From a virus (taxonomy: Duplodnaviria > Heunggongvirae > Uroviricota > Caudoviricetes): a stretch of 64,000 nt of DNA. The stretch lies in IMG/VR virus record IMGVR_UViG_3300017650_000009. One strand, written 5' to 3'. The notes beneath the pieces are model-generated. The model searched no databases. It saw only the letters and a list, made by a program, of their open reading frames with translations, and was not told where the DNA came from. A program made the position numbers and the translations under genes. This document shows positions 26,421-59,564 of the stretch, in pieces. The first letter of the stretch is position 1. Every line of letters begins with the position of its first letter.

Positions 26421-26448
26421 AAAACCCGACCTAAGCCGGGTTTAAGGG
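26421..26448 (-). terminator. intrinsic terminator of the tmRNA transcript
   Basis: Minus strand: aaacccggcttaggtcgggttttt. Confidence 0.6.
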
Positions 26449-26880: not shown

Positions 26881-27042
26881 CACTTATCTCGAATATACTG
26901 GACAAATGTGCAGGAGGCTGAACCCCCATATAGGCAAACGATTGCGACTTGTAAATCCCACCAAAGGATCGCAGACATTCCGACGCCGAAACACACATAC
27001 CCGGCTACCTCTAGACAACGGAGAGCTTTTTCAAAAATTACT

Positions 27043-33700: not shown

Positions 33701-34789
33701 ATGAAAGTAACCAAAATCAAAGACACTGAGCTGGATTTGCTACCGATCACAAGTGATCCCAATGGTATCGATTTATCGAAGGTTCCAGCAATCCGTGATG
33801 GTCTTGATATTACGAAAACCAACGATATTATTGGTTTTGGTTCCGGTGCTCAGAAGAAGGTTACCGACATCAGCCGCAAAATGCTTGAAGGCGTGAAGTC
33901 CAAGGATACTGGCGTTGTCGGTGGGCTGCTCGTCGATATGGTTACATCTATGCGTGGCCTTGATTTCGACAAAGTCAAGCCTGGATCAAAGGTTGGATTC
34001 CTCGGCAAGCTTTTGGGTCGTTTGACTCCAGTGGCCAAGTTTATTCAGCAGTACGAGGGTATCTCTTCACACATTTCAGTTGTGGTTGCTGATCTTGAAA
34101 CCAACAAAGTCGCCCTTATGCGCGACGTGAAGGTTCTTGATCGTCTTTATGCGACGACACTTACGTATTTCCATGAACTTGCCGCCTACATTGAAGCGGG
34201 GACACAAAAGCTTGAACAGCTTGATAAAACGGAAATCCCAGCCCTGAAAGCTATAGCTGAAAAGTCCGGGGATATGCTGGATGCACAGAAAGTTCAGGAC
34301 CTTGTTCATGCACGTGATATGCTTGACCGAAAGGTGCACGACCTAAAGCTAACACGCCAAGTCGTCATGCAAAGCCTACCAAGTATTCGCATGGTTCAGC
34401 AGAACGATACTGATTTGATTGAAAAGATCAATTCACAAATCACCAACACCATTCCGGCATGGGAACAGCAATTGGCCCTTGCTGTTGCTATGTGGCGTTC
34501 AGCTGATGCGACAAAAACAACTCGTGCGGTTTCGGATTATTCCAATGAATTGATCAAGCAAAATGCAAAAATGCTGCGCCAGTCAAATGCGGAAGCACGT
34601 ACGGAAATCGAACGTGGCATCTATGATGTTGAAGCAATCAAGGCAGCAAATGAAGAATTGATTGCAGCCATTGGTGAATCCATTGCTATCGCTAATGCAG
34701 GCAAAGAAAAGCGCTTGCAAGCATCAGCAGAACTCATCGAGTGTGAGAATAAGCTTCGTGATGTCTTAGCGAGCGCTTCTACTAATTAA
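33701..34789 (+). CDS. TelA/KlaB-like toxic-anion-resistance family protein (tentative)
   Basis: 362 aa, helical; conserved-looking N-terminal region GFGSGAQKKV...; size and context (with SPFH/NfeD) like Bacillus YceH. Confidence 0.45.
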   Translation: MKVTKIKDTELDLLPITSDPNGIDLSKVPAIRDGLDITKTNDIIGFGSGAQKKVTDISRKMLEGVKSKDTGVVGGLLVDMVTSMRGLDFDKVKPGSKVGFLGKLLGRLTPVAKFIQQYEGISSHISVVVADLETNKVALMRDVKVLDRLYATTLTYFHELAAYIEAGTQKLEQLDKTEIPALKAIAEKSGDMLDAQKVQDLVHARDMLDRKVHDLKLTRQVVMQSLPSIRMVQQNDTDLIEKINSQITNTIPAWEQQLALAVAMWRSADATKTTRAVSDYSNELIKQNAKMLRQSNAEARTEIERGIYDVEAIKAANEELIAAIGESIAIANAGKEKRLQASAELIECENKLRDVLASASTN

Positions 34790-34796: not shown

Positions 34797-34826
34797 CCTA
34801 AGCCGTGGGATTACCACGGCTTAGGA
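34797..34826. terminator. bidirectional hairpin between convergent genes
   Basis: cctaagccgtgg-gatta-ccacggcttagg. Confidence 0.5.
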
Positions 34827-37800: not shown

Positions 37801-38689
37801 GGGACGAACCATCAACGACTGTAGACCAAGTTGAACCATTATAGTTGAAAATAAACCAACTTGGATTTCCTAGGTTACCACCATTTGAATTCAAACCACC
37901 AGAACGACCAACACCAATAAAATTTGGTTTTCCGTCGATTTCCACATAAGCGGCGATCATGAAAATCATGTCATCGTCTTTGGCTGTGGAACTCATTACG
38001 CTAGAGAAGCTAAAACGATCCGCGGTAAGCCAACCAACCGCACCAGTCATTTCCTCACTATTGCGAGTCAACAACATTCCTCTGTTGCCCAATTCGGGAT
38101 CATGCATCCAGTAATATGCGGGATCACTTTGTGGTATAGTCTGTCCTAGATCATAAACACGATCACCAGCAAAACGTTTCCAATAAGCAAAATTTTGATT
38201 CTCTGGTGATGGAGCATAGATCGCAGGATCCTGATCAAATCGTTTGATTTCTTCGGAGTCCGAGCTATAAAACAGGTGAGCACGGGAGAAACAAAGTGTT
38301 TCATCTTCCATGATCGTTATTTTTTTGTTGATAATTTCCTTCGGGAAAGGAATACAAAGGATCGTAATACCAAATGTGAAGACACCGTCCTCTGGAATGT
38401 TTGCGGGTGGCAAACAGGTCGAACGAGGGGTTTCAGCAGTTAGGATTTCTGTTTCAGAAATAGGCACAACATACTTGAAACTATCCGACATAATCTCGGC
38501 TTTCAAGTCAACTTTTGTATTTTGGTATTGAAAACGTCCAGCGCCCACATCTTCATGTGTGAAACGTTGGCCTACTTTCATGATTTCGCCATTTAGAAGC
38601 AAATTACCTTTTGTGGGCAATGTTCGCAACTGATATAAACCACGTTCTGCGTAAGCTTCGACGATAATATGTTCGTTCAACAAACTCAT
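34811..38689 (-). CDS. giant structural protein (1292 aa) with CSPG/cadherin-like repeats; probable fiber/baseplate/adhesin
   Basis: Repeats FTHEDVGAGRFQYQN, FTHSDLDEGKVCIEG, FTQADVNAGRVKLVHH. Confidence 0.55.
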   Translation of the reverse strand: MSLLNEHIIVEAYAERGLYQLRTLPTKGNLLLNGEIMKVGQRFTHEDVGAGRFQYQNTKVDLKAEIMSDSFKYVVPISETEILTAETPRSTCLPPANIPEDGVFTFGITILCIPFPKEIINKKITIMEDETLCFSRAHLFYSSDSEEIKRFDQDPAIYAPSPENQNFAYWKRFAGDRVYDLGQTIPQSDPAYYWMHDPELGNRGMLLTRNSEEMTGAVGWLTADRFSFSSVMSSTAKDDDMIFMIAAYVEIDGKPNFIGVGRSGGLNSNGGNLGNPSWFIFNYNGSTWSTVVDGSSRAPNHHNNTKNESWPSLGETAVEIIRKGNTLTARCSQFGSTELDDSTLLTYTLSGPFAGQSQYGFGALSQNNARLTNLNFKVLPPEGEEPTDPRADPLFERFPITYTIEHVDKGSEKFPARAIYKLNGAPMKEGDTFTHSDLDEGKVCIEGQFIGPDELVSFFFNACANVNKCTWGRFDVKVREWPYPEVVNNTASMNECEEITLTEDNLKHTVEFGSNPDQITYTWNIEKTLEFTNGNPHIEVVPPQFTQADVNAGRVKLVHHCEEDKTPIWEHVMFDVCTQKNKCVLGDLIVRVHLKPIEHPPVDDNYNVIPLTGCSYVMGFDGQWQLKGKCGLFAEIEGRTLPEPEEEGEIIHVPNAEQPVTVVAVKRDGVLTWEILPFIIDMPPEGTCQVVTSVPNIKTNVNVIYAKITGWEYDGVPEFALIVDNKRLEKKSFDGLKADQVGSKQFIFTYEGTLGPNTTIGIVQTNYKVKGASRRFIRVDSIEVNGSQLKDFIYYNDKNTKINQPASYGEIVANNYSVRVGKPTVGWDAPPPTGDPRTCYRTPNGTFISDAAGQLAPEKGTWDGKLDPIIKEYDFLPAIENTREEWPWPPPRVVFDKESNNVWVKQPDETYIPQPNPHTEAYNVDPFTWIGPNEFWMPFKQKFTIKFYTNRLYVRIDIMNTIGTKVYSRFDPFVSPGKERTSWLLTAPKCLISQRDPNGTTYTTSILKAMNADANCGRGNLFLTSPMDNVEDAMFTNQYFKPTSTDPYQLGNYIVQFPGTDYYGAFAAASRPKLTPEYMNWELFNNDKIRKPKSTKIWDEYDSVGYVSGNVDRRVRNPLRDSTVVPMAGAQYGVLDIRKHMDEWKFFFQTGEKDENMQPISKAADAWFQGELTFLSPDMVNNAREKRNGGTINTTPPEGPTTITFQARAYDIYTGEEKIRTFKIHYTETGKSPEGAKSKTTDALSSVGKSFLPPRGGTMICVYKDARTIGECTILPPSTPDPNEPPKTPKPW

Positions 38690-39852
38690 AGGATTTGAGT
38701 CTCCGATTGTAAGCCAGCACTATTGGTCCCCGTTTGTGTTGTAATCAAAGCGTATCTACGTGTAGCGCTAAGACCGGTTACCGGATCAATGGCTGTGACC
38801 GTGAACAAATAGCGTCCCGGCTCTATTGGAAGCTTCCATGGTTGTGTACCAGCTTGTGATAACGGAATACGATATTGCGTACCCACATATCCTATGCTAG
38901 AAACAGCAACACCAGTAGGCAACCCGCCATCCCAATAAAACTGCTCGTGCAAATTCTTATACTGTATTAATTTATCAAATCCCAAACCACGTTCCGGATC
39001 ATCCAGCGGCGCACCATCAGCAATCGCATAGTTGGACCAATCAATAATGCCAGTACTCGGCGTGCTTGCGTTTCGTGGTGATATATCGGATCCACCTCTA
39101 AGAGACCACAATGCATTTGGTTTGTTTGTTTGGAATGTCCAAGTGAATACTGAATCGATGCGTGCATAGATTACGTTATCACCAATTTGTTTGAAATCCG
39201 CATGAATCTCAACATCAATAACTGTAGGTCCAACACATTGATTTGTTTTTGTGCAAACCATCAAACTAATTGTATCCCATGCAGGGGCCATTCCAGTAGC
39301 AACATAACGAATTGAGTTAGAGTTTACATCTGCTTGGGTGAACATAGTAGTCTTCTTACCACGTAGGCTCAAATAACCATTCGTGAGTGGGGTATTCAAT
39401 TTATAGATAAGATCGTTTGGACTAACACCATCTAGTTCCGCATGTATTACAGTATTATCCAAAACCGTAGACTTCTCCTCAACCACATTGATTTTGTTCT
39501 CAATTAGTGTGATCGTAGGAGGTGTCATTTTATTAATGCGGATCGAAAACTCAAATATTCCATCCTCAGGAACTTCAATATCACGATCAGGCAAGCATGT
39601 ATTATAGGAATCAGCCGTTATATTTCCAAGTCCATACTTGTATAGGTTATATTTGAAGGAATCCTCTAGAAACTCAACATTGTCGGGTACTTTGGTCGTA
39701 CTTACGAATTTGATTTGCTCATCGAAAATATCCTGTTGTGAAAATTTAGATCCCACTTGTAGTCGGGTTTTACCCTTAACAAGATAACCATATTGGGGCA
39801 ACGTGAGGAGCTTAAAAAGCCCCTCCGTCGGAATCATAGGATTAACAACCAT
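38686..39852 (-). CDS. structural protein (388 aa) with CSPG/cadherin-like repeats
   Basis: FSQQDIFDEQIKFVST, FTQADVNSNSIRYVATG; ATGA overlap with neighbours. Confidence 0.5.
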   Translation of the reverse strand: MVVNPMIPTEGLFKLLTLPQYGYLVKGKTRLQVGSKFSQQDIFDEQIKFVSTTKVPDNVEFLEDSFKYNLYKYGLGNITADSYNTCLPDRDIEVPEDGIFEFSIRINKMTPPTITLIENKINVVEEKSTVLDNTVIHAELDGVSPNDLIYKLNTPLTNGYLSLRGKKTTMFTQADVNSNSIRYVATGMAPAWDTISLMVCTKTNQCVGPTVIDVEIHADFKQIGDNVIYARIDSVFTWTFQTNKPNALWSLRGGSDISPRNASTPSTGIIDWSNYAIADGAPLDDPERGLGFDKLIQYKNLHEQFYWDGGLPTGVAVSSIGYVGTQYRIPLSQAGTQPWKLPIEPGRYLFTVTAIDPVTGLSATRRYALITTQTGTNSAGLQSETQIL

Positions 39853-39853
39853 A

Positions 39854-42800
39854 TTAACCCTCCTTTGTGCGGAAGTCTACGTTCCATACAGCCGGAGTAG
39901 GACCTACAGCACAATTCTCAGTTACTAGGATGTTAACGTATTGGCTTGTTAGTCCAGTATTGAATGTATATTCTAGTTCACCCGCAGTATTTGAACGGCA
40001 ACCCGAATTTACATGCACTGTACGATTTTGATCCTGAACAAAGATACTAGCATAACCAATATCAACTTTGAACTTGAGAACCATAGTCGAACCTGGCTTC
40101 TTCAAGAAAATAGTCTTCGATGCTTTGTTTGTAACTGGATCAGTATCACTTGGGCTGATAACTTCGCCTTCTTCCCAGTTGTCTGTTTCACCTGGAGTTT
40201 CGGCATCGTCTGGGTTAGGATCATCGACGTTTGCGTAATCCATATCAACATCACACATCTGCAAGTAATCATATGTAATTGCACGAGTTTCTAGCTCAAA
40301 TAGTACAAGCTGAGTCTGGAAACAAATCCAAGGTGGGTTGTTCACTTGTGTGAATTTAATATCGAATGTGCCTGAACCTGAGAAAGGTATTGAGTTAACC
40401 TCAAAATCAAAAGAATCAGGATCCGTACGATACGTGATACTAGTGTATGTGATTACGTTCGCATAGATGTCAGCAAGGGTAAATGTATCACCTTCATTGA
40501 GCACTACGCCGTTACGCTCGAGTACACCACGAGAAACACCACGAGTAATTGTGAAAATCATATCTTCACGATTAAAACTCGTACGCAAGTTCAACACGTT
40601 GAGTGACACACCTGTGATTGCTCGTTTGGTACAAGGCGGAACAACTAGACCCTTGTTGACCAACTCTGGCGGTGGTGGTGGAATAATACGAATTGGGAAT
40701 GTTTCCAAAGGCAACACATTTCCACCTGCATCTGTGAGCGAGAAGTCAAAGGAGTCCAAAAGTGCTCCTTCTTCTGTTTCACAATACGATAGGAAACCAA
40801 ATCTAATATCCTGATACGTGAATACATCGCCTTCCTTCAGTGGCACATCCTTTAGAGAAAGTGTACCATAAAGAGGAAGTTTGAGTATCTGTAACTTCAA
40901 TTGATCATCTGTGGATTCACGATCATTGATATAGATATTTGAGCCAGTAATTTGCTTACAAGTTAGCTCGCCTAGCACCAATTCGTTCATTACCAATTCA
41001 GGCGGACGATCCGTCATGATAAGTTCAATAAGGAAGTTATCCGTAATCTTTTCAATTCCATCAGTAACTTCAAAAGTAAAGAAATCAGTGCTCTGAACCA
41101 TTTGGTCCGGATCAGGAACATATGTTAGGCGTCCACTATTGATATCTTCTTGTGTTAGCTTTGTGCCAATTTCAATCTCAACAGTTCCCAACATAAGCTT
41201 ACCAACTTTTGGTAAAGAACGGATTGTATAAACCAGTTCAGCGTCGGTAGTAACGGAACCACTTGTAGCCAACAACAATGAGTTATCGATGGTTCCAGTT
41301 TCAGATTGCTCAACGACTAGTTTTTCGTTTTTCAATTCGAGTCCAGGAAGGAAAAACACATGGAATTCAATTTCTCTAGCACAGAATCCATTTGTCACCG
41401 ATAGCTCAAATACATCCTCTTCTGGAGTGTCACGTTCGTGTTGGTATGAGAGTAACATCAACAGGATATCATTACTTGTGAATGTTTCATCACGGCCAAT
41501 ACGTTTGCCATCGACTTTGAGATATCCAAAATTAGGAGTTTTGGTTACCGTAAACACGAACTCACTAGGATCAACACCTTCATTGTATGCGAGCAAATTA
41601 AGCTCAGTGATAGCCTTTTCCTTGGTGAAACTCATTGTGATTGGATTATAAATGATTTCAGGGCAAAGCAATGGTGGTGGTGGAAAAATAAACAACATCG
41701 CACCAGCAATACGGGACGAAAATTCATCATACATTACAAAGTGGACATAATCATTTACTACGTTTCGGTCGGTGACTTCGGCCACATAACGGAACGTATT
41801 GAGCTGCCAATCAGGTTGGTTGAATTTCTGCCCAACAAACGCCGGCTCACCATTGATATAGAATGTACCATATAGTGGTAGCTCGGTAATTTCCAACCAT
41901 GCATCCTCAAGTGGACCATCATCATCTGTAAAATTTACGTCTTCGACATCGAAGTTTACTTCACCATTTCGTGGTGGAGAATGTGGTTTATTAACTGTCA
42001 AATACGGAGGTTTATTATTCTCGTTCGTAATAACAATACCAGCGCCTTTACGTACTTCATTCATTTCGTCTCGAACAATGAATTCAAAACCATCAGTCCA
42101 AGGTGTGTGAACAGTACAATCATGTGTATATGTGAGTTTTGAGTCCAATACATCCTGATATGTAAACTTGTCACCGATTTTAACCGGTTTGCCATCCAAT
42201 AATAGTTCACCATGTGTGGGCAATACTGTAACTTCAATTTCGAGTTTATCTGGCTTCAAACCCTCTGGGTCACGAATGTAAATGTTTTCTTCAGTGAACA
42301 CACCGGATTCGCAACGTTCAACTTCCAAAATAACAGTATCAACAATTGGAGGTTCATTTGGAACTAGTTCCAATATGTATTTGAAGTCAGTTACGGTAGA
42401 AGTTTCACGAGTGTGATACGCATCCATAATAATTTCATCGAATGGTGTCTTTGAGCAATCATGTGTGAAACTTAGGCGACCAGCAGTAATATCAGCTAGA
42501 ACCCATGTATCTCCGACTTTCATTGGAGAATTATTCTTCTTTAAGATACCATGCAATGGAAGTTTCTTCAGAACAAAAGTAATTGGTTCATCTGGATCAT
42601 CTTCATCAACGGCCCATAGCGAATCCTGAGAGAATATTAATTCCTCACACTGCTTGATTTTACGTGGAGAGCCCTGGATCTGAATCAGTTTATCAACAAG
42701 ACGAATACGAATTTCAAGTGTATAAACGGGTGCCTTATCCTCCGGTTCACCAACTACAACACCAGACCAGTTATTCTTCGCATCACGTACTTTGAATACC

Positions 42801-43432
42801 AAATAGTCGAGTTCTTCCTCACGACTACCATTATGTCGGTATTCTAATCGACCTTTATCAATATCATCTTGTGTGAATTCGGTGCCAGGACCAATGCGCT
42901 TGCCCTTCAAGTAGATATCACCGAATTGTGGCCATGCTTGCACTCGCATAAAGATCGCACTTGGAGGGTCCTTAATATCGGTGAAGTGGATATTAACGTT
43001 TCCAATAACTTTATTTTCACTAATACCAACGTAAAGCGGAAGTGTACCACCTTCTGGTGCTCGATCGGGAAAGTTATATCGAATAGTGAGAGTAACGTTT
43101 ACTGGGCGGCTACTCGGATCATTTAGATCCTGAATTACTAGGTTTACCTTAATATACTCTTTAGTGACGTTAGACGGATCAGCAACGTAACGAATAACAC
43201 CGGAATTGATTTCAGCTTGTGTGAAAACAACTGGCTGTAATGTCGTAGTATTTCGTACAAAATGTCCAATGTCTGGATCCAAACTTCTCATCGTATATTG
43301 GATTTTATTGGGTGCACCATTACCACCAGTCGGCAACGTAGATACCGCATTCAAGTTTATTTGTGTTATAGGAGTGTTTGTTGCGGGGTTAATACCCAGC
43401 TCTTTAACCGTCACATTTGAGTTAATTGCCAT
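39854..43432 (-). CDS. giant structural protein (1192 aa) with about 9 CSPG/cadherin-like repeats
   Basis: Periodic x-GD-x-F-T-x-x-D-[IL]-x-x-G-x-[LI]-x-Y-x-H motifs about 100 aa apart. Confidence 0.55.
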   Translation of the reverse strand: MAINSNVTVKELGINPATNTPITQINLNAVSTLPTGGNGAPNKIQYTMRSLDPDIGHFVRNTTTLQPVVFTQAEINSGVIRYVADPSNVTKEYIKVNLVIQDLNDPSSRPVNVTLTIRYNFPDRAPEGGTLPLYVGISENKVIGNVNIHFTDIKDPPSAIFMRVQAWPQFGDIYLKGKRIGPGTEFTQDDIDKGRLEYRHNGSREEELDYLVFKVRDAKNNWSGVVVGEPEDKAPVYTLEIRIRLVDKLIQIQGSPRKIKQCEELIFSQDSLWAVDEDDPDEPITFVLKKLPLHGILKKNNSPMKVGDTWVLADITAGRLSFTHDCSKTPFDEIIMDAYHTRETSTVTDFKYILELVPNEPPIVDTVILEVERCESGVFTEENIYIRDPEGLKPDKLEIEVTVLPTHGELLLDGKPVKIGDKFTYQDVLDSKLTYTHDCTVHTPWTDGFEFIVRDEMNEVRKGAGIVITNENNKPPYLTVNKPHSPPRNGEVNFDVEDVNFTDDDGPLEDAWLEITELPLYGTFYINGEPAFVGQKFNQPDWQLNTFRYVAEVTDRNVVNDYVHFVMYDEFSSRIAGAMLFIFPPPPLLCPEIIYNPITMSFTKEKAITELNLLAYNEGVDPSEFVFTVTKTPNFGYLKVDGKRIGRDETFTSNDILLMLLSYQHERDTPEEDVFELSVTNGFCAREIEFHVFFLPGLELKNEKLVVEQSETGTIDNSLLLATSGSVTTDAELVYTIRSLPKVGKLMLGTVEIEIGTKLTQEDINSGRLTYVPDPDQMVQSTDFFTFEVTDGIEKITDNFLIELIMTDRPPELVMNELVLGELTCKQITGSNIYINDRESTDDQLKLQILKLPLYGTLSLKDVPLKEGDVFTYQDIRFGFLSYCETEEGALLDSFDFSLTDAGGNVLPLETFPIRIIPPPPPELVNKGLVVPPCTKRAITGVSLNVLNLRTSFNREDMIFTITRGVSRGVLERNGVVLNEGDTFTLADIYANVITYTSITYRTDPDSFDFEVNSIPFSGSGTFDIKFTQVNNPPWICFQTQLVLFELETRAITYDYLQMCDVDMDYANVDDPNPDDAETPGETDNWEEGEVISPSDTDPVTNKASKTIFLKKPGSTMVLKFKVDIGYASIFVQDQNRTVHVNSGCRSNTAGELEYTFNTGLTSQYVNILVTENCAVGPTPAVWNVDFRTKEG

Positions 43433-43539
43433 GTTTTTTGATTACTCCAAGGAAGCGCTTTTTCTTCCTATTTATGTTGTTTTGGACTTGACATTTTTTG
43501 CTTTCCTGTTACGTTTGTAGAAACAATGGAGAAGATCGT

Positions 43540-45132
43540 ATGTGGACAACAGACCTTAAACAGATTCACAAATTGTTCGACGATGCAGGATTTGAGATCC
43601 GGATCGTTGGTGGTGCTGTCCGCGATCATCTTTTGGGTCTTGAGCCCAACGACATCGATCTTTGCACTGATGCAACTCCAGATGAAATGATTACACTGGC
43701 CGAAACAAACAGTATCAAAGTTATCCCAACTGGTCTACAGCATGGTACGGTTACATTTGTAATCAATGGCGAACCCTATGAGATCACAACTTTGCGAATC
43801 GACGTTGAAACAGATGGTCGTCACGCAGAAGTTGCGTTCACTCGTAGCTTTGAAGAAGATGCTTTGCGCCGGGATTTCACGTTCAACGCTATGAGTTATG
43901 ATATTCATGGTGTTGTGCATGATTACTTCGATGGTCAAGTCGATCTGAAACGCAATGTTGTTCGATTCGTCGGAGATGCCGAAGCACGTATCCGTGAGGA
44001 TTACCTACGTGTATTGAGGTGGTTCCGGTTTTACTCGCGTATGGGTTCGAGTGAACGAACTATGGAAGACGTTGATCTTCTTCGTTTGTTTGGTGAAGAT
44101 TGGATTCAATCGGGTATGGATAAACTCAGTGGTGAGCGCATATGGTCCGAACTGAAAAAGATTTTATCAACCACAAACATGCGACAGGCCGCAATCGATT
44201 TGATTCAAACAGGAATGCTCGAAACAGTCCTGGGTCTTAGTATGACTCAATCCGAACGTGATATGTTCGTTACGCCGTCTTACGAATCATACTCGGTGAT
44301 TTGGAGTATAGAGGAGATTCTGAAATCCGATTTTGGTCATTTCCCACAATTTGTGGAACTTGCTCCAATTACAGTCATTGCACGATTTCTTGCTTCGTTC
44401 ACACCCGAAGAAGCAAACGCGGTAATTGATCGTTTGCGTATGTCTGCATCGGAAGCCAAAGCAATGCGCGAAATGCGCGATTACATGTTGATTGAACTTA
44501 CCGCGGGAAGTGAAACTGCTCGTCTCGATCTCATTTCCGGATTGACACGTACTTCACTTACATATTGGGTTCACTACGCGAGCTCCAAAGGCGTTGATAT
44601 GCATTTGGCTTTGTTTGCTGCGCTAACTTCACCAAATATGTTTCAGCCACGCGATGTTAGTGAAATGATCCGCTCAGTGTTTAAGCCAAACGGCGAAGTC
44701 GAGATGTCGGAAATTGAACCATTTACAATAACGGGCAAGGATCTGATTGAGCTCGGTTTGAAACCTGGTCCAATGTTCTCCAAGATCATTGAGATGGCAC
44801 GATGGAAATGGTACTCAAGCTCATGTAGTATGGACCGTGGACGGCAGCGTACTTGGGTTTCCAAACTGATCGCGGATGCACCCGAGCCGCATGTGTTGGT
44901 CAAACACCTCTATAGTTGTTTCCAAAGTGAACTCGATTTCAATAAGGGAATGGATCATTATGATATCCAACTTCATACCATCGAATGGGCAACTAAGCTA
45001 CCAAAGGGGTTTCATGCAGTTATCGAGGATCGCAAATCCCGTGATGATTGTCGCATGTTTGTATTGTGTCCGACTAAAGCTGCGGCGGTTACGCTCAAAC
45101 TAGAGGACGAATATATGCATGACGCAAAGTAA
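43540..45132 (+). CDS. cca: CCA-adding tRNA nucleotidyltransferase (class II Pol-beta NTase) with C-terminal extension
   Basis: RIVGGAVRDHLLGLEPNDIDLCTDATP head motif; SD ggagaag + ATG 43540 (track ORF starts earlier at 43498). Confidence 0.75.
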   Translation: MWTTDLKQIHKLFDDAGFEIRIVGGAVRDHLLGLEPNDIDLCTDATPDEMITLAETNSIKVIPTGLQHGTVTFVINGEPYEITTLRIDVETDGRHAEVAFTRSFEEDALRRDFTFNAMSYDIHGVVHDYFDGQVDLKRNVVRFVGDAEARIREDYLRVLRWFRFYSRMGSSERTMEDVDLLRLFGEDWIQSGMDKLSGERIWSELKKILSTTNMRQAAIDLIQTGMLETVLGLSMTQSERDMFVTPSYESYSVIWSIEEILKSDFGHFPQFVELAPITVIARFLASFTPEEANAVIDRLRMSASEAKAMREMRDYMLIELTAGSETARLDLISGLTRTSLTYWVHYASSKGVDMHLALFAALTSPNMFQPRDVSEMIRSVFKPNGEVEMSEIEPFTITGKDLIELGLKPGPMFSKIIEMARWKWYSSSCSMDRGRQRTWVSKLIADAPEPHVLVKHLYSCFQSELDFNKGMDHYDIQLHTIEWATKLPKGFHAVIEDRKSRDDCRMFVLCPTKAAAVTLKLEDEYMHDAK

Positions 45133-48774: not shown

Positions 48775-49275
48775 GTGAATTGCATTCCGAAAGCTCGTAT
48801 TTCCGTTTATGATGATGCATCGCGCCGGGAAACCGAAACAATAGCATTTCGTAGTGCGAGCATTCAGTTTATCAAGGAATGCAAGGAGTATCATGGTCAG
48901 GAGAAAACTTCCAATCTTATTAACAAGTTGGGAGAAGTCTTGGGACGTGAATGGTCCGCACAAGTGATTTTCGATCTACTAACGGAAGAAGAAACTAACG
49001 TTGTAACTATTCGGTTTACCGCGTTTTCAACGGAAAATGCGATCCCCAAGATTAAAGCTCTCCGATCTGCTGCTGAAATATCCTTAAAGGAAGCAAAAGA
49101 TCTTATAGAGGATTTGCATGACAAGTTAGCCGCAATTATATTTGAATGCCAACGTAAAGGTGTGAGTTTACCTCGTGCACATTTCTTGCCATTCATCGAG
49201 TTGCGAGTTAAAATGGAAGATCGTAACGACGCCTTAGCGGCACTTAGGTATTGTAATGGACTTTTTATAATATGA
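48775..49275 (+). CDS. protein with ribosomal L7/L12 C-terminal-domain-like region
   Basis: VVTIRFTAFSTENAIPKIKALRSAAEISLKEAKDLIEDL versus L12 CTD [24 protein letters not shown]; GTG start with SD aaggagag. Confidence 0.45.
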   Translation: MNCIPKARISVYDDASRRETETIAFRSASIQFIKECKEYHGQEKTSNLINKLGEVLGREWSAQVIFDLLTEEETNVVTIRFTAFSTENAIPKIKALRSAAEISLKEAKDLIEDLHDKLAAIIFECQRKGVSLPRAHFLPFIELRVKMEDRNDALAALRYCNGLFII

Positions 49276-53749: not shown

Positions 53750-53779
53750 AGGGGTATTTGACCCCTTGGGGTCAAATAC
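53750..53779. other. perfect 30-bp palindromic hairpin at intercistronic junction (no T-tract)
   Basis: ggggtatttgacccc-ttg-gggtcaaatacc; overlaps stop of topo subunit and precedes SD of next gene. Confidence 0.5.
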
Positions 53780-55652
53780 CAATCCAATCTTTTCTGTCGT
53801 CTGAACGACCATTGTTAAAGATCAAGTCCAAGGATTCCTTCATATTGCCATCATCGACGAATCCATAAAGTGCTGGATTATCCAACGAATATTGCCAGTC
53901 ATCCTCGGTAAGCGTTCCAAGACCCTTAGCACGAGTAATAGACCAACCGCTATATTCTTTTGGATCAAAATCCATATAGTTGTCAGAGTACCAGTATTTG
54001 CGTGTTTTGCCCTTCTCCGCAATGATGAATGGAGTCTTGAAAATATTAATAAACGCTGGTAGCTTTGGATCAAAAAGTTCTGGCCAATATGTGTGGAAGA
54101 AATTAATCAAAAGTGCGCCAATATTAAGACCATCCGGATCCATATCGTGCGCAATGTAAACGGAACCATAACGTAGCTCATCACGAACAGCTTTACGACC
54201 CAATACTAGACCCAAACTATTCATGATATCAGCGAGTGCTTTATTCGCAATAACAGTCTTCAGATCTTCACCATTGACGTTTAGAACCTTACCACGCAAC
54301 CCCAAGCCGCCATGGATTTTTGGATCACGAACTGACCCCATACCCGAGATAGCAGATTCACCTTCGGCCAAAAATAGTATGCACTTGGTACGATCGTTGC
54401 CGTTTGCATCCATTAGACCAGCCACTTTACTACGAGAAAGCTTCTTTGCTGCCTTTGCAATATCAGCAGCATCTTTCTTCATAGTGCGTTCGGAACAACG
54501 CTTATAGATTTCTTCAATCCATTCTTTGTTCTTTCGGATAACATCCTTGTATAGTTCAGGATCCTCAAGTGCCTTTGTAACGACCTTGGATACTTCTTCG
54601 TTAATCAAGCGAGTCTTTGACTGCGAATCGAAGTTGGGACCATGCATATTTGTGATGTTATAGATGAGAACACCCTCAGTGACATCACTACGGTTTGGAC
54701 TCAACTTACGACGCTTGCTTTCCTTCTCCAATGCATTCAATAGATTACGATAGAAATCACGTCGGAATGTTTCAATATGAACACCGCCGTTGAAAGCTGG
54801 AATATTATTGACTAGTGTATGGAAATGTTCACCATCATTGATAAAATTCGGAACTAGCCAGAAACGTGTACGGAAGTTGTCTTGTTTGATTTCCAAATTA
54901 ATCGGTTTGATCTTCTCAAACATGGTTTGTTCTGGACGCGGCTTTACTCGGATTTGTGTACCATTGAAATACACCTTAATCAACGAGTTAGCAATCGCAA
55001 TCTCTGTAATACGATCACGAACAAACTCAACTGGCAAAGTAGTATCCGAAAATACCTTCTTGCTTAGTTTGAATGTAACCTTGGTTCCAGTCTTTCCACT
55101 TGTAACATCGATGATCTTTGGTTCACTCGCAACTAGTTCCTCACCAAGTGCTTCATTACCCTCTGTGAAACTCTGGGTGAATTTCTTACCATTGCGATGA
55201 ATCACAAGCTTGAAATATTCGGAACAAAAGTTAACGCCGGCAGCACCAATACCATTCGTGCCAGCTACCTCACCACGTTCTTCGAAATTACGACCTGCAC
55301 GAGCATGAGACAAAGCCAATGTTGCAGCATGAACTTGATGATCATCGTCCCAATCGATTGGAATACCGCGACCATTGTCCTCAACTGACATTTCGCGAGT
55401 TTCAGGATCATATGTTACGTCAAGACGATTACCATGACCATGGCCGACTACTTCATCCAAGCTGTTATCGATGATTTCACGGAAGGCCGTATAAACTGCT
55501 GGAACCCATTTATAGGAGCGAGGTTCTGGTTTAGTTCCGTCATATGCGATGACTGTCTGTTCATGCAAGGCGCGTGAACCAAAATACATTTCAGTCTTTA
55601 ATCGAACGTGTGAATAATCGGTGAGTTTCTTAATTGATTTTTCAGATGCCAT
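53772..55652 (-). CDS. type II DNA topoisomerase, GyrB-like ATPase/TOPRIM subunit (T4 gp39+gp60-like)
   Basis: HVRLKTEMYFGS, EIIDNSLDE, DNGRGIP (GHKL ATPase); LAEGESA TOPRIM motif. Confidence 0.8.
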   Translation of the reverse strand: MASEKSIKKLTDYSHVRLKTEMYFGSRALHEQTVIAYDGTKPEPRSYKWVPAVYTAFREIIDNSLDEVVGHGHGNRLDVTYDPETREMSVEDNGRGIPIDWDDDHQVHAATLALSHARAGRNFEERGEVAGTNGIGAAGVNFCSEYFKLVIHRNGKKFTQSFTEGNEALGEELVASEPKIIDVTSGKTGTKVTFKLSKKVFSDTTLPVEFVRDRITEIAIANSLIKVYFNGTQIRVKPRPEQTMFEKIKPINLEIKQDNFRTRFWLVPNFINDGEHFHTLVNNIPAFNGGVHIETFRRDFYRNLLNALEKESKRRKLSPNRSDVTEGVLIYNITNMHGPNFDSQSKTRLINEEVSKVVTKALEDPELYKDVIRKNKEWIEEIYKRCSERTMKKDAADIAKAAKKLSRSKVAGLMDANGNDRTKCILFLAEGESAISGMGSVRDPKIHGGLGLRGKVLNVNGEDLKTVIANKALADIMNSLGLVLGRKAVRDELRYGSVYIAHDMDPDGLNIGALLINFFHTYWPELFDPKLPAFINIFKTPFIIAEKGKTRKYWYSDNYMDFDPKEYSGWSITRAKGLGTLTEDDWQYSLDNPALYGFVDDGNMKESLDLIFNNGRSDDRKDWIGI

Positions 55653-55764
55653 TTTGAATCCAATATTTTTTCTTAAATTTACTAAATTGTTGAGCCAATT
55701 GTCAATTTTCTAGGTGCCAAGAGAAACCCACTAATGAGTTCCACATAATAATTTATGCCTGTGT

Positions 55765-55793
55765 TGACAATCAATATATTTTCCGCTACATTG
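55765..55793 (+). promoter_or_regulatory. sigma70-like (early) promoter TTGACA-17-TACATT
   Basis: gtgTTGACAatcaatatattttccgcTACATTggg upstream of 55811. Confidence 0.4.
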
Positions 55794-55810: not shown

Positions 55811-56179
55811 ATGTCTTATATTGCATATGAGCTAGATGAAGTATCAAGAAACAAGCTTTTGGCGATCTTTCCACCAAAGTTTGCTGATTTCATTGGGCAC
55901 CATGTGACTTGGGCATTTGGTGTGGGCTCAGATGTTCCATTGCCGCCGGTTACTGACATTCGTGTTATCGGATATCTCAGCGACGATTCGCTTGAGTGTC
56001 TCGTGGTTGAGGTTGGAGGAACACATGTACGCGAAGATGGTCGAACATACCACATCACTTGGTCGCTTGATCGTGACAAAGGTCGAAAGCCTGCGGAATC
56101 AAATTTTCTTCTTGGTGCTTCTACTTTCTCTAGGATTTCACCTGTGGAGATTCATGCAATCCCCAAGCATTTTAAGTGA
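55811..56179 (+). CDS. 2H phosphoesterase superfamily protein (LigT/CPDase/Acb1-like)
   Basis: Two H-x-T-x motifs: HHVTWAF and YHITWSL. Confidence 0.55.
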   Translation: MSYIAYELDEVSRNKLLAIFPPKFADFIGHHVTWAFGVGSDVPLPPVTDIRVIGYLSDDSLECLVVEVGGTHVREDGRTYHITWSLDRDKGRKPAESNFLLGASTFSRISPVEIHAIPKHFK

Positions 56180-56604
56180 GACTAATGAATAACATTGATA
56201 TGACTGTGGTAACATACCCGGATTACCATTTGGAGCCGGGAGCCCACAATATTGTTGTAACTGGTGGGCATAAAGATCGGCAGCAAATACAAGATTTAAT
56301 TGGTGAGCTTTGGCCCTCCAAAGTCGCAGTTTATCATCTAGAGAATCCGAGTATTCCCAATGTGAATTCCAAAATTGCTCACGCATTCACGTATATGAGT
56401 TTGTCTCATACTCAGATTATTTTGATTGAGCAAACCTCTTCCCTTCTAACCAATATGCTTCCTATTTGCAAAAATGCGTTCATCATTATTGTTGACGATC
56501 AGGCGTTAGAATATGTGACCTGTTCTTTAAACTTGACATATCCGGGTCGCCTGTTTTTTAATATAGAAGACGCGGTTAAAGCTGCAATTTTGGCTACCAA
56601 ATAA
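56176..56604 (+). CDS. hypothetical protein
   Basis: ATGA overlap with upstream gene. Confidence 0.4.
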   Translation: MRLMNNIDMTVVTYPDYHLEPGAHNIVVTGGHKDRQQIQDLIGELWPSKVAVYHLENPSIPNVNSKIAHAFTYMSLSHTQIILIEQTSSLLTNMLPICKNAFIIIVDDQALEYVTCSLNLTYPGRLFFNIEDAVKAAILATK

Positions 56605-56637: not shown

Positions 56638-57882
56638 ATGGCCAACAAAGAACTCACTTGCTCGTTTTGCGAAAAGAGCCAACATGAAGTTAAAAAACTG
56701 ATTGCTGGCCCAGACGTTTACATTTGCGATGGTTGCGCAATTCTCTGTTATGAGATTCTGGATGAAAAGCCAGGTGCAGAACTAAGTGTGTCGGATGATA
56801 CACCTACACCACGTAAGATTAAGGAATTCCTCGATCAATACGTTATTGGTCAAGATGACGCAAAAATGGTTTTTGCAGTTGCAGTTAATGCTCATTATAA
56901 GCGACTCGAAAATCCAATTGTTGATGGAGTTGAACTTGAGAAATCCAACATTTTGTTGCTCGGTCCAACAGGATCAGGTAAAACGCTTATTGCAAAGAGT
57001 ATTGCACGTATGCTTGATGTACCTTTCACGATTGCCGACGCGACGAGCCTGACGGAAGCCGGTTATGTCGGTGATGATGTTGAATCTATCATTAGCCGGT
57101 TGATAGCATCAGCAGAAGGTGATGTGAAGAAAGCCGAACGTGGAATCATCTACTTGGATGAAATCGACAAGAAAGCAAAGAAATCCGAAAATATGAGTAT
57201 TACTCGCGATGTTTCCGGTGAAGGTGTTCAGCAGGCTCTTTTGAAGATCATCGAAGGTTCCGAAGTTCGTGTTCCTGCACAAGGTGGACGTAAAAATCCT
57301 TCGCAGGAAATGCTAACAGTTGATACATCAAATATCCTGTTCATCGTCGGTGGCGCGTTTGTTGGCCTTGAGGCAATCATTGATAAGCGCGTGAATAACA
57401 ACGATAATAGCATTGGTTTCGGTGCAAAGCCAAAGAAGTCTGGAAAACTAGCATATGATGGTTCCCTACTAAAGCAAGTTGAACCAGAGGATCTTGCCAA
57501 ATACGGTATTATTCCGGAACTCATCGGTCGACTCAGTACAATTACGTATCTCGAGGAGCTTAACGCGGAACAGTTGATCCGCGTCCTCACTGAACCTAAG
57601 AACGCGATTACACGCCAATATGAAAAGCTATTTAAGCTGGAAAAGGTCGAACTTACGTTCGAACCAGAAGCTCTTCAATTTGTTGCGGAAACTGCAATTG
57701 CTCGTAAAGTGGGTGCTCGTGGTCTTCGTAGTGTTATCGAGCGTAAGTTGACAAAACTACAGTATGAGCTACCTGAACTAGCAGCGGATGGTGTAACAAA
57801 GATCTCTTTGAACCGTGAGTTCTTCGAGCTTGACACTGCGCCTACCCTAGTGTATGAATCAAAAAAGACCGGTTCTAATTGA
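56638..57882 (+). CDS. clpX: ClpX ATP-dependent protease ATPase subunit
   Basis: N-terminal zinc-binding [11 protein letters not shown]...[10 protein letters not shown]; Walker [12 protein letters not shown]; full-length 414 aa. Confidence 0.85.
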
Positions 57883-57917
57883 TCCGGTCGACCGCAAATA
57901 TAAAGGAGAATTTTTCG

Positions 57918-58439
57918 GTGAATCTCACACATGATGTGAACAATAAGATCCGTGCTAAAGAAGTGCGTGTAATCGATAACAACGGCGAACAGATTGGCGT
58001 GCTTGCGTTAGCTGATGCCCAGAAACTTGCTGATGAATGTGATCTTGATCTAGTAGTGATCAATCCAAAGTCAGCTCCACCAATTGCCCGTATTGTCGAT
58101 TATGGCAAGTTCAAGTACGAGCTTGTTCGTAGTGAGAAGGAACGCAAGAAAAAGTCTCGCGAAAACATCATCGATGTTAAGGAAGTTCAGCTTCGTCCAG
58201 TCACGGACACACACGATGTTGAGATCAAAGCCAAGCGCGCCAAGTCATTCCTCGAGGATGGTGACAAAGTGAAGGTGGTAGTCCGTTTCAAGGGTCGTGA
58301 GCTATCCCATCGCGAAATGGGTCAAAAGATCATCGATAGTTTTTGCGTCCTTGTGGGCGAAGAAAACTATAAAGTTGATTCTCCAGTACAGATGTCTGGT
58401 CGTCAGATGTCTATGATTCTTAGCCCTAACCGCAAGTAA
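57918..58439 (+). CDS. infC: translation initiation factor IF-3 (start GTG 57918 after SD aaggag; alternatively TTG 57879)
   Basis: INNKIRAKEVRVIDNNGEQIGV...DLDLVVINPKSAPPIARIVDYGKFKYE...KEVQLRP...VVRFKGRELSHREMGQKII matches IF3 N- and C-domains. Confidence 0.8.
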   Translation: MNLTHDVNNKIRAKEVRVIDNNGEQIGVLALADAQKLADECDLDLVVINPKSAPPIARIVDYGKFKYELVRSEKERKKKSRENIIDVKEVQLRPVTDTHDVEIKAKRAKSFLEDGDKVKVVVRFKGRELSHREMGQKIIDSFCVLVGEENYKVDSPVQMSGRQMSMILSPNRK

Positions 58440-58448: not shown

Positions 58449-58637
58449 ATGAAACAGTGTGATGTGACTGCAACTCAAACTGGGCGTACAGTTCGTGCAG
58501 ATATCATGAGTCAAACTGACAAATCAATTAAAGTTGCTCTTGTCGGTACAAACATCACACTGGTTCTTTCTCGAACAGACGTACGTCGTCCATATGTGGG
58601 AAATAAAAATGGACTTGAATTCACGACGAAAGGCTAA
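58449..58637 (+). CDS. small hypothetical protein
   Basis: ORF track. Confidence 0.3.
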   Translation: MKQCDVTATQTGRTVRADIMSQTDKSIKVALVGTNITLVLSRTDVRRPYVGNKNGLEFTTKG

Positions 58638-58970: not shown

Positions 58971-59564
58971 ATGGGATACGATATGAAAAAGTTTCAGGAA
59001 TTTTGCAAAATCGAAAACACCACAAGCTATAACGAATTCATTCGTGCTTGTGTTCGTGCAAAATGGCCTTCTGATGCACAAAAAGAATGGTGGTATACCA
59101 AACTCAGCAACAGTCGTCGCCTGAAATTGCTTCAAGTTTCTGAAGCACAAAATCATCATTGCTGCTACTGCGGGGTTAAAACCTGGCATCCCAGCTATAA
59201 TGAAATTGGATCGAGAAAGACACTCGCAACGCTCGAGCACGTTAAGTGCCGTGCACATGGTGGGACAGATTCAAATATGAATCTGGCAATGGCTTGCCAC
59301 AGTTGCAATAATCTGCGCGCCGATCATGACGCAGATTGGTTCTACGACATATCACAGATGCCCGGTTCAACCCACGCTAATATGCGGTTAGCATTGGGTA
59401 TGACTCCTATGGTTGAGCGTCAGCGGAGCGAAGAGAAGCTAGCCGCGTCGGCTGCTCGACATAACGCCATGGTGTTAACGTTAGGTTGGTATTTCCTTGT
59501 TGACAATCATGCTAGTGATAGTATAGATGATTTCCTGAATATGGAAATGTTGGAGGCGGCTTAA
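58971..59564 (+). CDS. HNH endonuclease
   Basis: HHCCYCGVKTW...LEHVKCRAHGGTDSNMNLAMACHSCNNLRAD. Confidence 0.7.
   Translation: MGYDMKKFQEFCKIENTTSYNEFIRACVRAKWPSDAQKEWWYTKLSNSRRLKLLQVSEAQNHHCCYCGVKTWHPSYNEIGSRKTLATLEHVKCRAHGGTDSNMNLAMACHSCNNLRADHDADWFYDISQMPGSTHANMRLALGMTPMVERQRSEEKLAASAARHNAMVLTLGWYFLVDNHASDSIDDFLNMEMLEAA

Follow-up and report, generated by a model that had tools for sequence, protein, structure and literature searches.

Background

Huge phages are known to carry genes for IF3, S21, L7/L12, and tmRNA (Al-Shayeb et al. 2020, PMC7162821), and a set of translation and proteolysis functions is not unusual for them. The commonest neighbours of phage bS21 genes include those for Hsp20 and Clp proteases (Chen et al. 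2022, PMC9723584). In phage AP-J-162 the adjacency of clpX and IF-3 has already been noted (PMC11242549), and this one sentence is all that was found on a conserved clpX-infC pair in the literature outside subscription journals. For the ClpX of such phages, a role in replication has been proposed from the proximity of topoisomerase genes in the Atu_ph07 and AP-J-162 papers (PMC6102473, PMC11242549), and it has also been suggested that ClpX aids virion assembly (Iyer et al., PMC7824862). The lineage has its own ClpP, which is encoded elsewhere in the Phosso and Atu_ph07 genomes (see also PMC6102473). Published work connects ClpXP with the assembly of ribosomes and with the products of stalled translation (PMC10743472, PMC9368063).

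The sequence investigated here, referred to as the window, is a stretch of 64,000 nucleotides of IMG/VR virus record IMGVR_UViG_3300017650_000009. It is part of a metagenomic jumbo phage of about 435 kb, belonging to the lineage of Atu_ph07, Phosso, and AP-J-162, the host of which is probably an alphaproteobacterium. A search of the phage collection with the region from 55 to 60 kb returned no match at the nucleotide level. The proteins are 74% (ClpX) and 68% (IF3) identical to Phosso 520/521, and 61% and 51% identical to gp2 (ClpX) and gp1 (IF3) of Atu_ph07. Both genes are already annotated in this lineage, to which this locus adds one more phage that has them.

Organization of the locus

In the window, clpX and infC lie in tandem on the same strand, as the initial annotation had described, within a run of genes that continues past orf62 to about position 61363 (Table 1). 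Promoter-like sequences are present both 5' of this run and in front of the divergent topoisomerase gene. Intergenic sequence makes up only about 8% of the window but contains six of its eight TTGACA-N16-18-TAnnnT sites. From the arrangement of the genes, clpX and infC are almost certainly co-transcribed. The first gene, orf122, has a conserved counterpart at the equivalent place in Phosso, L003, and Atu_ph07. On its motifs alone it resembles a 2H phosphoesterase, with no match in Pfam or PDB to identify it as such or as Acb1-like.

Table 1. Positions of the genes and sequence elements in the window.
Feature	Position	Strand	Description
tmRNA	26399-26917	-	Permuted (two-piece), alphaproteobacterial-type; ARAGORN 26399-26873, Rfam 26443-26917
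L7/L12-like ORF	48775-49275	+	166 aa; faint L7/L12 C-terminal-domain resemblance at residues ~79-115
Divergent promoter-like site	55705-55676	-	TTGACA-18-TAAATT, before topoisomerase gene
Sigma-70-like promoter	55764-55792	+	TTGACA-17-TACATT, upstream of orf122-orf142-clpX-infC
orf122	55811-56179	+	First gene of run; H-x-T-W motifs HVTW and HITW; phrog_36523
orf142	56176-56604	+	139 aa in public gene calls; kept upstream of clpX in Phosso and L003
clpX	56638-57882	+	ATG start, 414 aa; AAA+ unfoldase with N-terminal C4 zinc-binding domain
Junction hairpin	57868-57890	+	(G)ACCGG-N11-CCGGT(C), spans clpX stop codon
infC long frame	57879-58439	+	Alternative TTG start at 57879, overlapping clpX TGA as TTGA
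infC	57918-58439	+	IF3, 173 aa; preferred GTG start, AAGGAG Shine-Dalgarno at 57903-57908
orf62	58449-58637	+	Small gene directly after infC; homologues in Phosso and L003

ClpX and IF3

Both proteins are full length and phage-encoded, with profile scores above the equivalog cut-offs and with both IF3 domains complete. Truncation of either gene, or inactivating substitutions in the ClpX Walker A and B motifs or the IF3 C-domain, would have spoken against the initial annotation; none was found and the motifs are intact. With the NCBIfam ClpX equivalog NF003745 the window ClpX reaches 581.6 bits (cut-off 359), and with TIGR00382 551.7 bits (cut-off 370.75). It carries the Pfam domains zf-C4_ClpX (PF06689, E = 7.8e-18), AAA_2, and ClpB_D2-small, and can be aligned over its whole length to E. 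coli ClpX, with 58% identity. In this alignment Walker A (GPTGSGKT), Walker B (IYLDEID), the pore-1 loop (GYVG), the Arg finger, and sensor-2 (GARGLR) are all present, and the zinc ligands C8, C11, C30, and C33 are invariant across the alignment of homologues (A1). The IGF loop, through which ClpP is docked, is found in the window ClpX and in 77 of 81 viral homologues. The RKH loop, which in E. coli aids recognition of the ssrA tag, is RKN in the phage protein, retaining the Arg and Lys with His replaced by Asn.

With TIGR00168 (cut-off 60), the window IF3 gives 199 bits. IF3_N (PF05198) is covered over positions 1-69 of 70 and IF3_C (PF00707) over 1-86 of 86, and the two are joined by a basic, lysine-rich linker (SEKERKKKSRE). 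Based on residue roles taken from PMC9723500 and general knowledge, the residues contacting the 30S subunit and the tRNA elbow are kept (R25, Q33, R66, Y75, R99, D106, K110, R129, R133, and E134), and the C-domain differs from that of E. coli at four positions, Y107V, R112K, R116S, and R131K. It had been speculated that the phage rewires initiation fidelity, but the residues checked are mostly canonical and there is no sign in them of altered fidelity.

The start of infC and the clpX-infC junction

Both of the infC starts put forward previously, TTG 57879 and GTG 57918, are present in the sequence. The GTG is the preferred candidate, with AAGGAG 9 nt upstream of it, and the public gene calls likewise give a protein of 173 aa. 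A GTG behind AAGGAG is found in four of four group A relatives. Phosso, L003, and Atu_ph07 all retain this GTG and its Shine-Dalgarno sequence, and an overlapping start is ruled out in them by in-frame stops. The TTG is thus less likely to be the main start, although it stays a candidate because overlaps of the form TTGA, ATGA, and GTGA are usual in groups B and C, in which infC begins with ATG, GTG, or TTG.

In the E. coli paradigm, infC is part of the thrS-infC-rpmI-rplT operon and is autoregulated through its AUU start codon. The phage infC does not have an atypical start of the AUU type, the candidates being GTG or TTG, and no leader element for infC was found in the Rfam search. Start-codon autoregulation of the phage gene is therefore unlikely, given the canonical start, the absence of genes for L35 and L20 after it, and the lack of an Rfam leader.

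The hairpin reported at the junction exists as GACCGG-N11-CCGGTC, but its stability is no better than would be expected by chance in a 53 nt fold (z = -1.08, 26 of 200 shuffles equally stable), and on this basis it was rejected as a functional element in the window; the value for an 86 nt fold is z = -2.5. A hairpin at the same site is much stronger in Phosso and L003 and is absent in Atu_ph07. The spacer between the two genes is 35-65 nt in the group to which the window belongs. Relatives carry a promoter-like TTGACA element (TTGACA-N17-TAnnnN) in this spacer, and an internal sigma-70 promoter is plausible there; for the window none is claimed, since the spacing is 14 nt. The length of the spacer and the promoter-like element in relatives would suggest that strict co-expression is possibly relaxed in this group.

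Distribution of the clpX-infC pair

The window ClpX carries the viral signature DEIDKKAK. In a first IMG/VR sample, which was conditioned on this motif, infC is directly downstream of clpX in 69 of the 78 untruncated loci. A second, less biased sample was drawn with conserved ClpX patterns, and here infC is directly downstream in 40 of 80 loci. The two genes are adjacent in 37 of the 46 loci carrying DE[IV]DKK, whereas the 31 loci with the bacterial-type motif include no such case (p = 9e-14). By comparison, none of 80 bacterial clpX loci has infC directly downstream, and clpP is upstream in 77 of them. Among the loci sampled, only viral contigs have infC following clpX.

The two proteins have diverged together, with a Mantel r of 0.92 (0 of 999 permutations as high) and congruent neighbour-joining trees. 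Of 57 distinct junctions, 51 have the start of infC overlapping or directly abutting the stop of clpX, consistent with translational coupling. The two genes stay together even where ClpX identity has fallen to 41%, among groups A, B, and C, the neighbouring genes of which are wholly different; groups B and C are regarded as viral from IMG/VR classification and local gene content alone, and no cultured phage was found for either. In some relatives there is a larger cassette, ClpX-IF3-S21-HSP20-ClpS, with S21 after IF3 in 58 loci. In the lineage of the window, S21, HSP20, and ClpS are no longer beside the pair and the overlap of start and stop is missing.

The tmRNA and the L7/L12-like ORF

It had been proposed that clpX and infC, together with an L7/L12-like protein and a tmRNA, make up a set for the takeover of translation and proteolysis. 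The intact tandem genes and the tmRNA of this set stand, but the L7/L12 match is sub-threshold and the four items do not form a linked unit, the tmRNA being encoded on the other strand at a distance of 30 kb and the L12-like ORF lying 7.4 kb away. The divergent topoisomerase genes are between this ORF and the clpX run, and the ORF does not belong to the operon. ClpP, SspB, SmpB, ClpS, and S21 are absent from the window in searches with E. coli queries and with HMMs from viral clusters, as is HSP20 in searches with the latter.

The tmRNA is recognized both by ARAGORN, as a permuted tmRNA with the tag AANDNVSAEMALAA, and by Rfam, as alpha_tmRNA and tmRNA_permuted (RF01849, 73.2 bits, threshold 50; RF04321, 90.4 bits, threshold 47). 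The tag ends in ALAA, which is the classical ClpX degron, and this ending is kept within the lineage, the homologous Phosso tmRNA having the tag ANDNVSTKVALAA. A relation between the tmRNA and the unlinked clpX may be inferred from this degron.

The ORF with the reported L7/L12 segment does have a faint resemblance to the C-terminal domain, but at 21.8 bits it scores below the Pfam cut-off of 25.9 for Ribosomal_L12 (PF00542), matching positions 5-38 of the 67 in the profile. Matches to bL12 in PDB are weak (E = 0.035-0.2), the only protein recovered in a homologue search was the query, and a single-sequence AF2 model (pLDDT 42) was too poor for a structure search. Residues 1-78 match nothing in bL12, including its N-terminal domain for dimerisation and L10 binding.

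Origin and role of the pair

Probably, clpX and infC are a co-expressed auxiliary pair, inherited as a unit, of an Atu_ph07-like jumbo phage. The phage ClpX would form a hexamer that docks onto ClpP through its conserved IGF loops. This ClpP could come from the host, or from the phage itself if, as in Phosso and Atu_ph07, the gene lies in another part of the genome. Such a complex would unfold and degrade substrates, among them peptides with the phage or host tmRNA tag ending in ALAA. The phage IF3 would act as a canonical initiation factor, binding the 30S subunits of the host. Having a GTG start behind a strong Shine-Dalgarno sequence rather than an AUU-type codon, it may escape autoregulation. 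Total IF3 activity could then rise, which might in turn repress the host infC. The pairing would provide for joint expression of initiation capacity and protein quality control under heavy phage protein synthesis, and in this lineage it appears to be a remnant of the larger cassette of related phages.

That the genes were instead recently captured from a host, or are bacterial contamination, might be thought from the closeness of both proteins to their bacterial orthologues in sequence and length, but the likelihood of this is very small and it is effectively refuted. Identity to bacterial ClpX is 53-58% and alike for all phyla, so that none stands out, with alphaproteobacteria at only 55-57%, while it is 59-75% to 119 metagenomic homologues; the closest homologues come from phages or metagenomes, many of them on contigs of 430-576 kb. 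For IF3, identity to named bacterial proteins does not exceed 51%. The gene order is absent from all 80 bacterial loci, the GC content of clpX-infC matches that of the rest of the window, and the genes on either side resemble those of phages and show synteny with Phosso and Atu_ph07. The comparison with host genes called for earlier, to separate recent acquisition from an old phage lineage, thus places both genes in the latter, and the two have been inherited as a unit within this old viral lineage. Another explanation for the adjacency is that it is an inherited accident, with two independent auxiliary genes held in a poorly recombining early region beside the topoisomerase genes and with ClpX serving replication or virion assembly, as has been suggested for Atu_ph07 and AP-J-162. 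Those roles have been proposed in the literature (PMC6102473, PMC11242549; PMC7824862), and the topoisomerase neighbourhood is kept in the group of the window and in RaK2. The linkage to topoisomerase genes is, however, missing in groups B and C, and the fact that the pair is kept at such low ClpX identity, usually overlapping, amid wholly different neighbours makes selection for linkage hard to avoid. An accident of inheritance is therefore considered unlikely.

It is quite unlikely that ClpX, with or without ClpP, strips or destroys host factors bound to the 30S subunit, for example the host IF3 or hibernation or assembly factors, which are replaced by the phage IF3 and, where encoded, S21. 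The deep conservation of the pairing, its absence from the bacterial sample, and the usual overlap or abutment of start and stop would all fit with this, as would the S21 genes that follow IF3, the direct adjoining of IF3 and a ClpS-domain protein in the RaK2-like and Asteriusvirus phages, and the published ties of ClpXP to ribosome assembly and stalled products. Against it, the mitochondrial link between ClpXP and ERAL1 is disputed within the cited source itself, shared timing alone can yield conserved adjacency, and the lineage of the window has neither the neighbouring S21, HSP20, and ClpS nor overlapping clpX and infC. A low probability is likewise given to the broader proposal that an ancient pair marked by DE[IV]DKK is the core of the cassette in many large phages and has persisted through a direct functional link in takeover of the 30S subunit. 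If true, the clearing of 30S subunits by a phage unfoldase with replacement of IF3 would be a mechanism of ribosome takeover undescribed so far.

Little changes for this locus, which is one more Atu_ph07-like jumbo phage with annotated clpX and infC. The physical linkage of an initiation factor to a Clp unfoldase, seen in viral contigs but in none of the bacterial genomes sampled, spans lineages that share as little as 41% ClpX identity. This suggests that initiation capacity and proteolysis are managed by large phages as a unit. The pair is a testable gene set, and as Atu_ph07 and Phosso are cultured they could be used to investigate the function of the phage IF3 and ClpX.

Comparison with known systems

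When compared with the bacterial clpP-clpX-lon operon, the phage ClpX is a clear orthologue with the catalytic and ClpP-docking motifs all kept, but its gene has neither clpP upstream nor lon downstream, infC being there instead. The bacterial proteins have RKH where the phage has RKN, and the bacterial motif DE[IV]DK[IV][STA]R is replaced by DEIDKKAK. With regard to thrS-infC-rpmI-rplT, the two-domain IF3, the lysine-rich linker, and the 30S-binding and tRNA-elbow residues are shared. Here the phage gene differs in its canonical start (GTG or TTG) with a strong Shine-Dalgarno sequence and in being followed by orf62 and genes of unknown function rather than those for L35 and L20.

The surveys of huge phages (PMC7162821) and of bS21 phages (PMC9723584) do not mention IF3 beside ClpX or an overlap of their genes, and the window differs from the huge-phage repertoire in being without S21, HSP20, and ClpS. 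In the RaK2-like (Alcyoneusvirus) and Asteriusvirus phages, IF3 adjoins the ClpS-domain protein and is a few genes from topoisomerase II, a similar arrangement, but there is no ClpX at the IF3 locus and the IF3 is about 40% identical over 83% of its length.

The closest systems are the cultured phages of the same lineage. The window differs from these in having a spacer of 35 nt between clpX and infC, as against 55-65 nt, and in its weak hairpin, its wrongly spaced promoter-like element, and the open frame that extends back to the TTG overlapping clpX. GC content is about 42% in the window, 47% in AP-J-162, and 37% in Atu_ph07, and a tmRNA is encoded by the window, Phosso, and AP-J-162, with none annotated in Atu_ph07. 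In Atu_ph07, Phosso, and AP-J-162 (clpX / gp547), as in the window, topoisomerase on the minus strand is followed by an orf122-like gene, clpX, and infC on the plus strand, infC having a GTG start with an AAGGAG Shine-Dalgarno sequence, and the order orf122, orf142, clpX, infC, orf62 beside the divergent topoisomerase gene is common to the cultured relatives.

The clpX-infC pair

In the window, clpX and infC are both intact and belong to a run of genes on one strand that is preceded by a promoter-like sequence, and their pairing is conserved and co-inherited. The tandem of full-length ClpX and IF3 recorded in the initial annotation is confirmed, while its interpretation as part of a translation and proteolysis takeover set is supported in part.

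Every sequence test identifies the first ORF as ClpX. Its match to the NCBIfam equivalog NF003745 reaches 581.6 bits, for a cut-off of 359; it contains the Pfam domains zf-C4_ClpX, AAA_2, and ClpB_D2-small, and its alignment with E. coli ClpX extends over the full length. All four zinc cysteines are kept, together with Walker A (GPTGSGKT), pore-1 (GYVG), Walker B (IYLDEID), the IGF loop for docking on ClpP, the Arg finger, and sensor-2 (GARGLR), the sole notable change being RKN at the RKH loop. The second ORF is likewise identified as IF3, scoring 199 bits against TIGR00168 (cut-off 60) with both domains complete. In an alignment with IF3 proteins of known structure, that of E. coli included (E. 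coli numbering), it retains R25, Q33, R66, Y75, R99, D106, K110, R129, and R133, with Y107V, R112K, R116S, and R131K relative to E. coli. Neither gene was found by alignment to be truncated or obviously inactivated.

Many viral ClpX sequences (loci L006-L082 and L173-L252) retain their ATPase motifs and IGF loop but have no RKH loop at all (about 45 of 81) and read GYAG, not GYVG, at pore-1 (43 of 81); these changes hint at altered substrate choice. A conserved membrane and coiled-coil protein of about 500 aa is encoded immediately 5' of clpX in 71 loci.

The infC start and the gene run

Both start codons proposed for infC exist in frame: TTG at 57879, which overlaps the clpX TGA as TTGA, and GTG at 57918, which has AAGGAG 9 nt upstream. 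AAGGAG followed by GTG at 9–10 nt is common to the jumbo phages Phosso and Atu_ph07 and to L003, an IMG/VR contig of the window's group; in all three a start overlapping clpX is ruled out by in-frame stops, and independent public gene calls for the window sequence give a 173 aa product. For these reasons GTG is preferred with considerable confidence, with TTG a possible secondary start. Either codon is canonical, and the atypical AUU-class start through which IF3 normally autoregulates is absent. As no leader element was found with Rfam either, autoregulation through the start codon is unlikely.

The hairpin noted at the junction is present, although its stability is no better than that of shuffled sequence (z = -1.08; longer stretch z = -2.5). 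At the same junction there are hairpins of 16 bp in Phosso (z = -3.7) and 13 bp in L003 (z = -2.3), and none at the matching place in Atu_ph07. In relatives within the window's group, a TTGACA-N17-TAnnnN element starts either on the clpX stop codon or directly behind it (loci L001 7251-7300, L003 7248-7290, L002 7234-7262, L167, L169, L171, and L005). A perfect, phage-specific inverted repeat of 13–16 bp often overlaps this element, and the two may act as promoter and operator for infC inside the run. The window sequence at this point, TTGATC with a 14-nt spacer, is not credible as an internal promoter, the correct spacing having been lost.

Between 55811 and about 61363, closely spaced genes, among them orf122, orf142, clpX, infC, and orf62, are without exception on the + strand. 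Divergent sigma-70-like promoters lie between the topoisomerase large-subunit gene and orf122 (55705-55676, -; 55764-55792, +), and of the window's eight promoter-like sites with a perfect TTGACA, six are intergenic, such sequence making up about 8% of bases. We infer that the run would be co-transcribed. The position of orf122 upstream of clpX is conserved in Phosso, L003, and Atu_ph07. Its product has no Pfam or PDB matches and matches phrog_36523, a family of unknown function; with its two H-x-T-W motifs about 60 residues apart, it would resemble the small 2H phosphoesterases, whose fold is also that of Acb1, an anti-CBASS protein. Downstream of infC, where the window carries the HNH-endonuclease-like ORF and no tRNA, Phosso encodes an HNH endonuclease together with a tRNA-Ile(TAT).

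Features of the window, in order of position
Feature	Position	Strand	Remarks
549-aa PAS protein	9368-11017	-	Several PAS domains, no recognised output domain
tmRNA	26399-26917	-	Permuted two-piece alphaproteobacterial type
Flotillin/SPFH protein	31134-32888	+	
TelA	33701-34789	+	Full-length; toxic anion resistance; E = 1e-101
Three consecutive cadherin-like-repeat proteins	34811-43432	-	1292, 388, 1192 aa
PolyA_pol / CCA-adding tRNA nucleotidyltransferase family protein	43498-45132	+	Another translation-related gene
L7/L12-like ORF	48775-49275	+	166 aa; residues ~79-115 resemble bL12 C-terminal-domain factor-binding helices
Topoisomerase large-subunit gene	53772-55652	-	
orf122	55811-56179	+	First gene of clpX-infC run
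clpX	56638-57882	+	ATG-initiated, 414 aa
infC frame	57879-58439	+	Open from 57879, directly after clpX
HNH-endonuclease-like ORF	58971-59564	+	Weak Pfam match

The pairing in viral and bacterial sequences

The pairing is widespread in viral contigs, the viral status of uncultured groups being taken from IMG/VR, and is absent from a bacterial sample of 80. A first scan of IMG/VR gave 80 ClpX loci (41–73% identity), with infC directly downstream in 69 of the 78 in which sequence continues downstream; this sample is selected for DEIDKKAK, a peptide immediately behind Walker B that occurs in 80/80 of these loci and 0/80 bacterial ClpX. Universally conserved ClpX patterns gave 80 further loci in a second scan, and IF3 is no more than 400 nt downstream of clpX in 40 of them. 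Here adjacency is seen in 37 of 46 loci with DE[IV]DKK, versus none of 31 with bacterial-type DK[IVL] (Fisher p = 9e-14). Seven bacterial-type loci look like host-derived fragments, because their order is clpP-clpX-lon. In the control loci from 80 bacterial genomes, IF3 is never within 5 kb of clpX; clpP is upstream in 77 and lon downstream in 55.

Across 71 viral loci, the pairwise distances of ClpX and IF3 are correlated (Mantel r = 0.92; 0/999 permutations as high), which means that the two genes have been inherited together. The infC start overlaps the clpX stop in 39 of 57 distinct junctions and abuts it within 3 nt in 12, an arrangement that is a classic sign of translational coupling. 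Spacing exceeds 20 nt in four only, all relatives in the window's own group.

Age of the lineage

A 434,884-bp JGI metagenome contig encodes a protein 100% identical to the ClpX of the window and an IF3 that differs from the window's solely in how its first codon is translated. The closest cultured relatives are the Sinorhizobium phage Phosso (ClpX 74%, IF3 68%) and the Agrobacterium phage Atu_ph07 (61%, 51%), and the local synteny is common to both.

Whether the genes are a recent acquisition or belong to an old phage lineage had been raised as a check, and identity, GC content, and trees all bear on it. The 80 most similar bacterial ClpX, the best of the first 600 hits from a pattern search over 185,579 species genomes, are 53–58% identical to that of the window regardless of phylum, Alphaproteobacteria being at 55–57%; 119 metagenomic homologues, many on 430–576 kb contigs, are 59–75% identical. 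For IF3, about 45 metagenomic relatives (49–72%) rank before the first named bacterial proteins, which are mostly from Clostridia (45–51%), with an alphaproteobacterial MAG at 48%. The GC content near clpX-infC is that of the rest of the window. In neighbour-joining trees, which are distance trees with short internal branches and indicative only, bacterial sequences form one pure group with the viral sequences outside, and the ClpX and IF3 trees are grouped alike. The evidence points to an old lineage, not a recent capture.

Two relatives are on very large contigs, L169 (ena:ERZ27245855:k141_178484; 869,618 bp) and that encoding the homologue P0197 (958,096 bp), the latter almost exactly twice the 480,938-bp contig bearing the same protein. 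In both contigs (870 and 958 kb) a circular genome has probably been assembled twice over as a concatemer, and they would not represent phages near 1 Mb.

The proposed set and its function

The tmRNA assigned to the takeover set is real, although it is 30 kb from clpX and on the other strand, and its type suggests an alphaproteobacterial host. A homologue in Phosso (L172 1468-2157; Phosso 349553-350242) lies in a gap unannotated in the GenBank record; it has 108–113 bits with Rfam and was missed by ARAGORN. The tags (window AANDNVSAEMALAA, Phosso ANDNVSTKVALAA) share an ANDNVS start and an ALAA end. Since ALAA is the canonical ClpX degron, as in E. coli ssrA, recognition by the RKN-loop ClpX is plausible. 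No SmpB was found in the window.

The resemblance of the L7/L12-like segment is limited to residues ~79-115 and lies below the Pfam threshold. The protein has almost no detectable homologues (Phosso only, 31% identity) and lacks the L12 N-terminal domain, so that, judged from its sequence, it would be unable to enter the ribosomal stalk by the normal route. IF3, S21, L7/L12, and tmRNA are already known from huge phages (PMC7162821); the set proposed for the window is therefore typical of them and not a linked unit.

The gene content is of jumbo-phage type, with a DnaB-like helicase and tail-collar and Mtd_N proteins also encoded; ARAGORN found no tRNA genes across the 64 kb. The flotillin/SPFH and TelA genes near each other are unusual phage cargo. 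The cadherin-like proteins, the largest with seven Cadherin_3 repeats, are probably surface or fibre proteins.

ClpX hexamers would dock through their IGF loops onto ClpP, the phage's or the host's, and degrade tagged or otherwise selected proteins. No ClpP of this phage was seen, but a phage-encoded partner is likely, since Phosso and Atu_ph07 each encode a ClpP (each 64% identical to that of E. coli, and far from clpX). The phage IF3 would work on the 30S subunits of the host in the canonical manner and, free of the AUU-start limit, could increase total IF3 activity; host infC would in turn be repressed by autoregulation in the host, for which E. coli is the paradigm. The pairing would serve to have initiation capacity expressed together with protein quality control. 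The most interesting reading, though an unlikely one, is a direct functional link, in which ClpX would remove host factors from the 30S subunit and so make way for phage IF3 and S21.

Comparison with known systems

In the Sinorhizobium phage AP-J-162, clpX directly adjoins IF-3 and topoisomerase, and the gene list includes L7/L12, S21, and tmRNA (PMC11242549). Atu_ph07 has seven Clp-family genes, including ClpX gp2, ClpP gp676, and ClpS gp708 (PMC6102473), and its ClpX and IF3 are both mentioned by Iyer et al. (PMC7824862). The window locus is a further case of an arrangement already described in relatives. A clade of viral ClpX that bears DE[IV]DKK and is tied to IF3, mostly through overlapping stop and start codons, is apparently undescribed in the non-subscription literature searched; this is an incremental addition, and Atu_ph07 and Phosso, both in culture, make the tie testable. 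In phage G, clpP-clpX is arranged in bacterial style and ClpX is not linked to IF3, and in one uncultured huge phage clpX and the IF3 gene are 130 kb apart.

Clustering of flanking ORFs identified a recurring same-strand block of ClpX, IF3, ribosomal protein S21, a small ORF, an HSP20-type small heat-shock protein, and ClpS, often with ClpP 3–4 kb upstream, of which the window keeps ClpX and IF3 only. In contigs nearer the window (ClpX 59–64%; 481–870 kb), S21 is two to six genes 3' of IF3, and HSP20 and ClpS are also present in one. Hsp20 and Clp proteases are among the commonest neighbours of phage bS21 described by Chen et al., with no mention of IF3 (PMC9723584). In RaK2-like phages (L165 4983-6047, RaK2) and Asteriusvirus (L166 4983-6045, Escherichia phage ph0011), IF3 is instead followed directly by a ClpS-domain protein of about 180 aa, with topoisomerase II a few genes beyond, and this adjacency is a second kind of IF3-Clp linkage.
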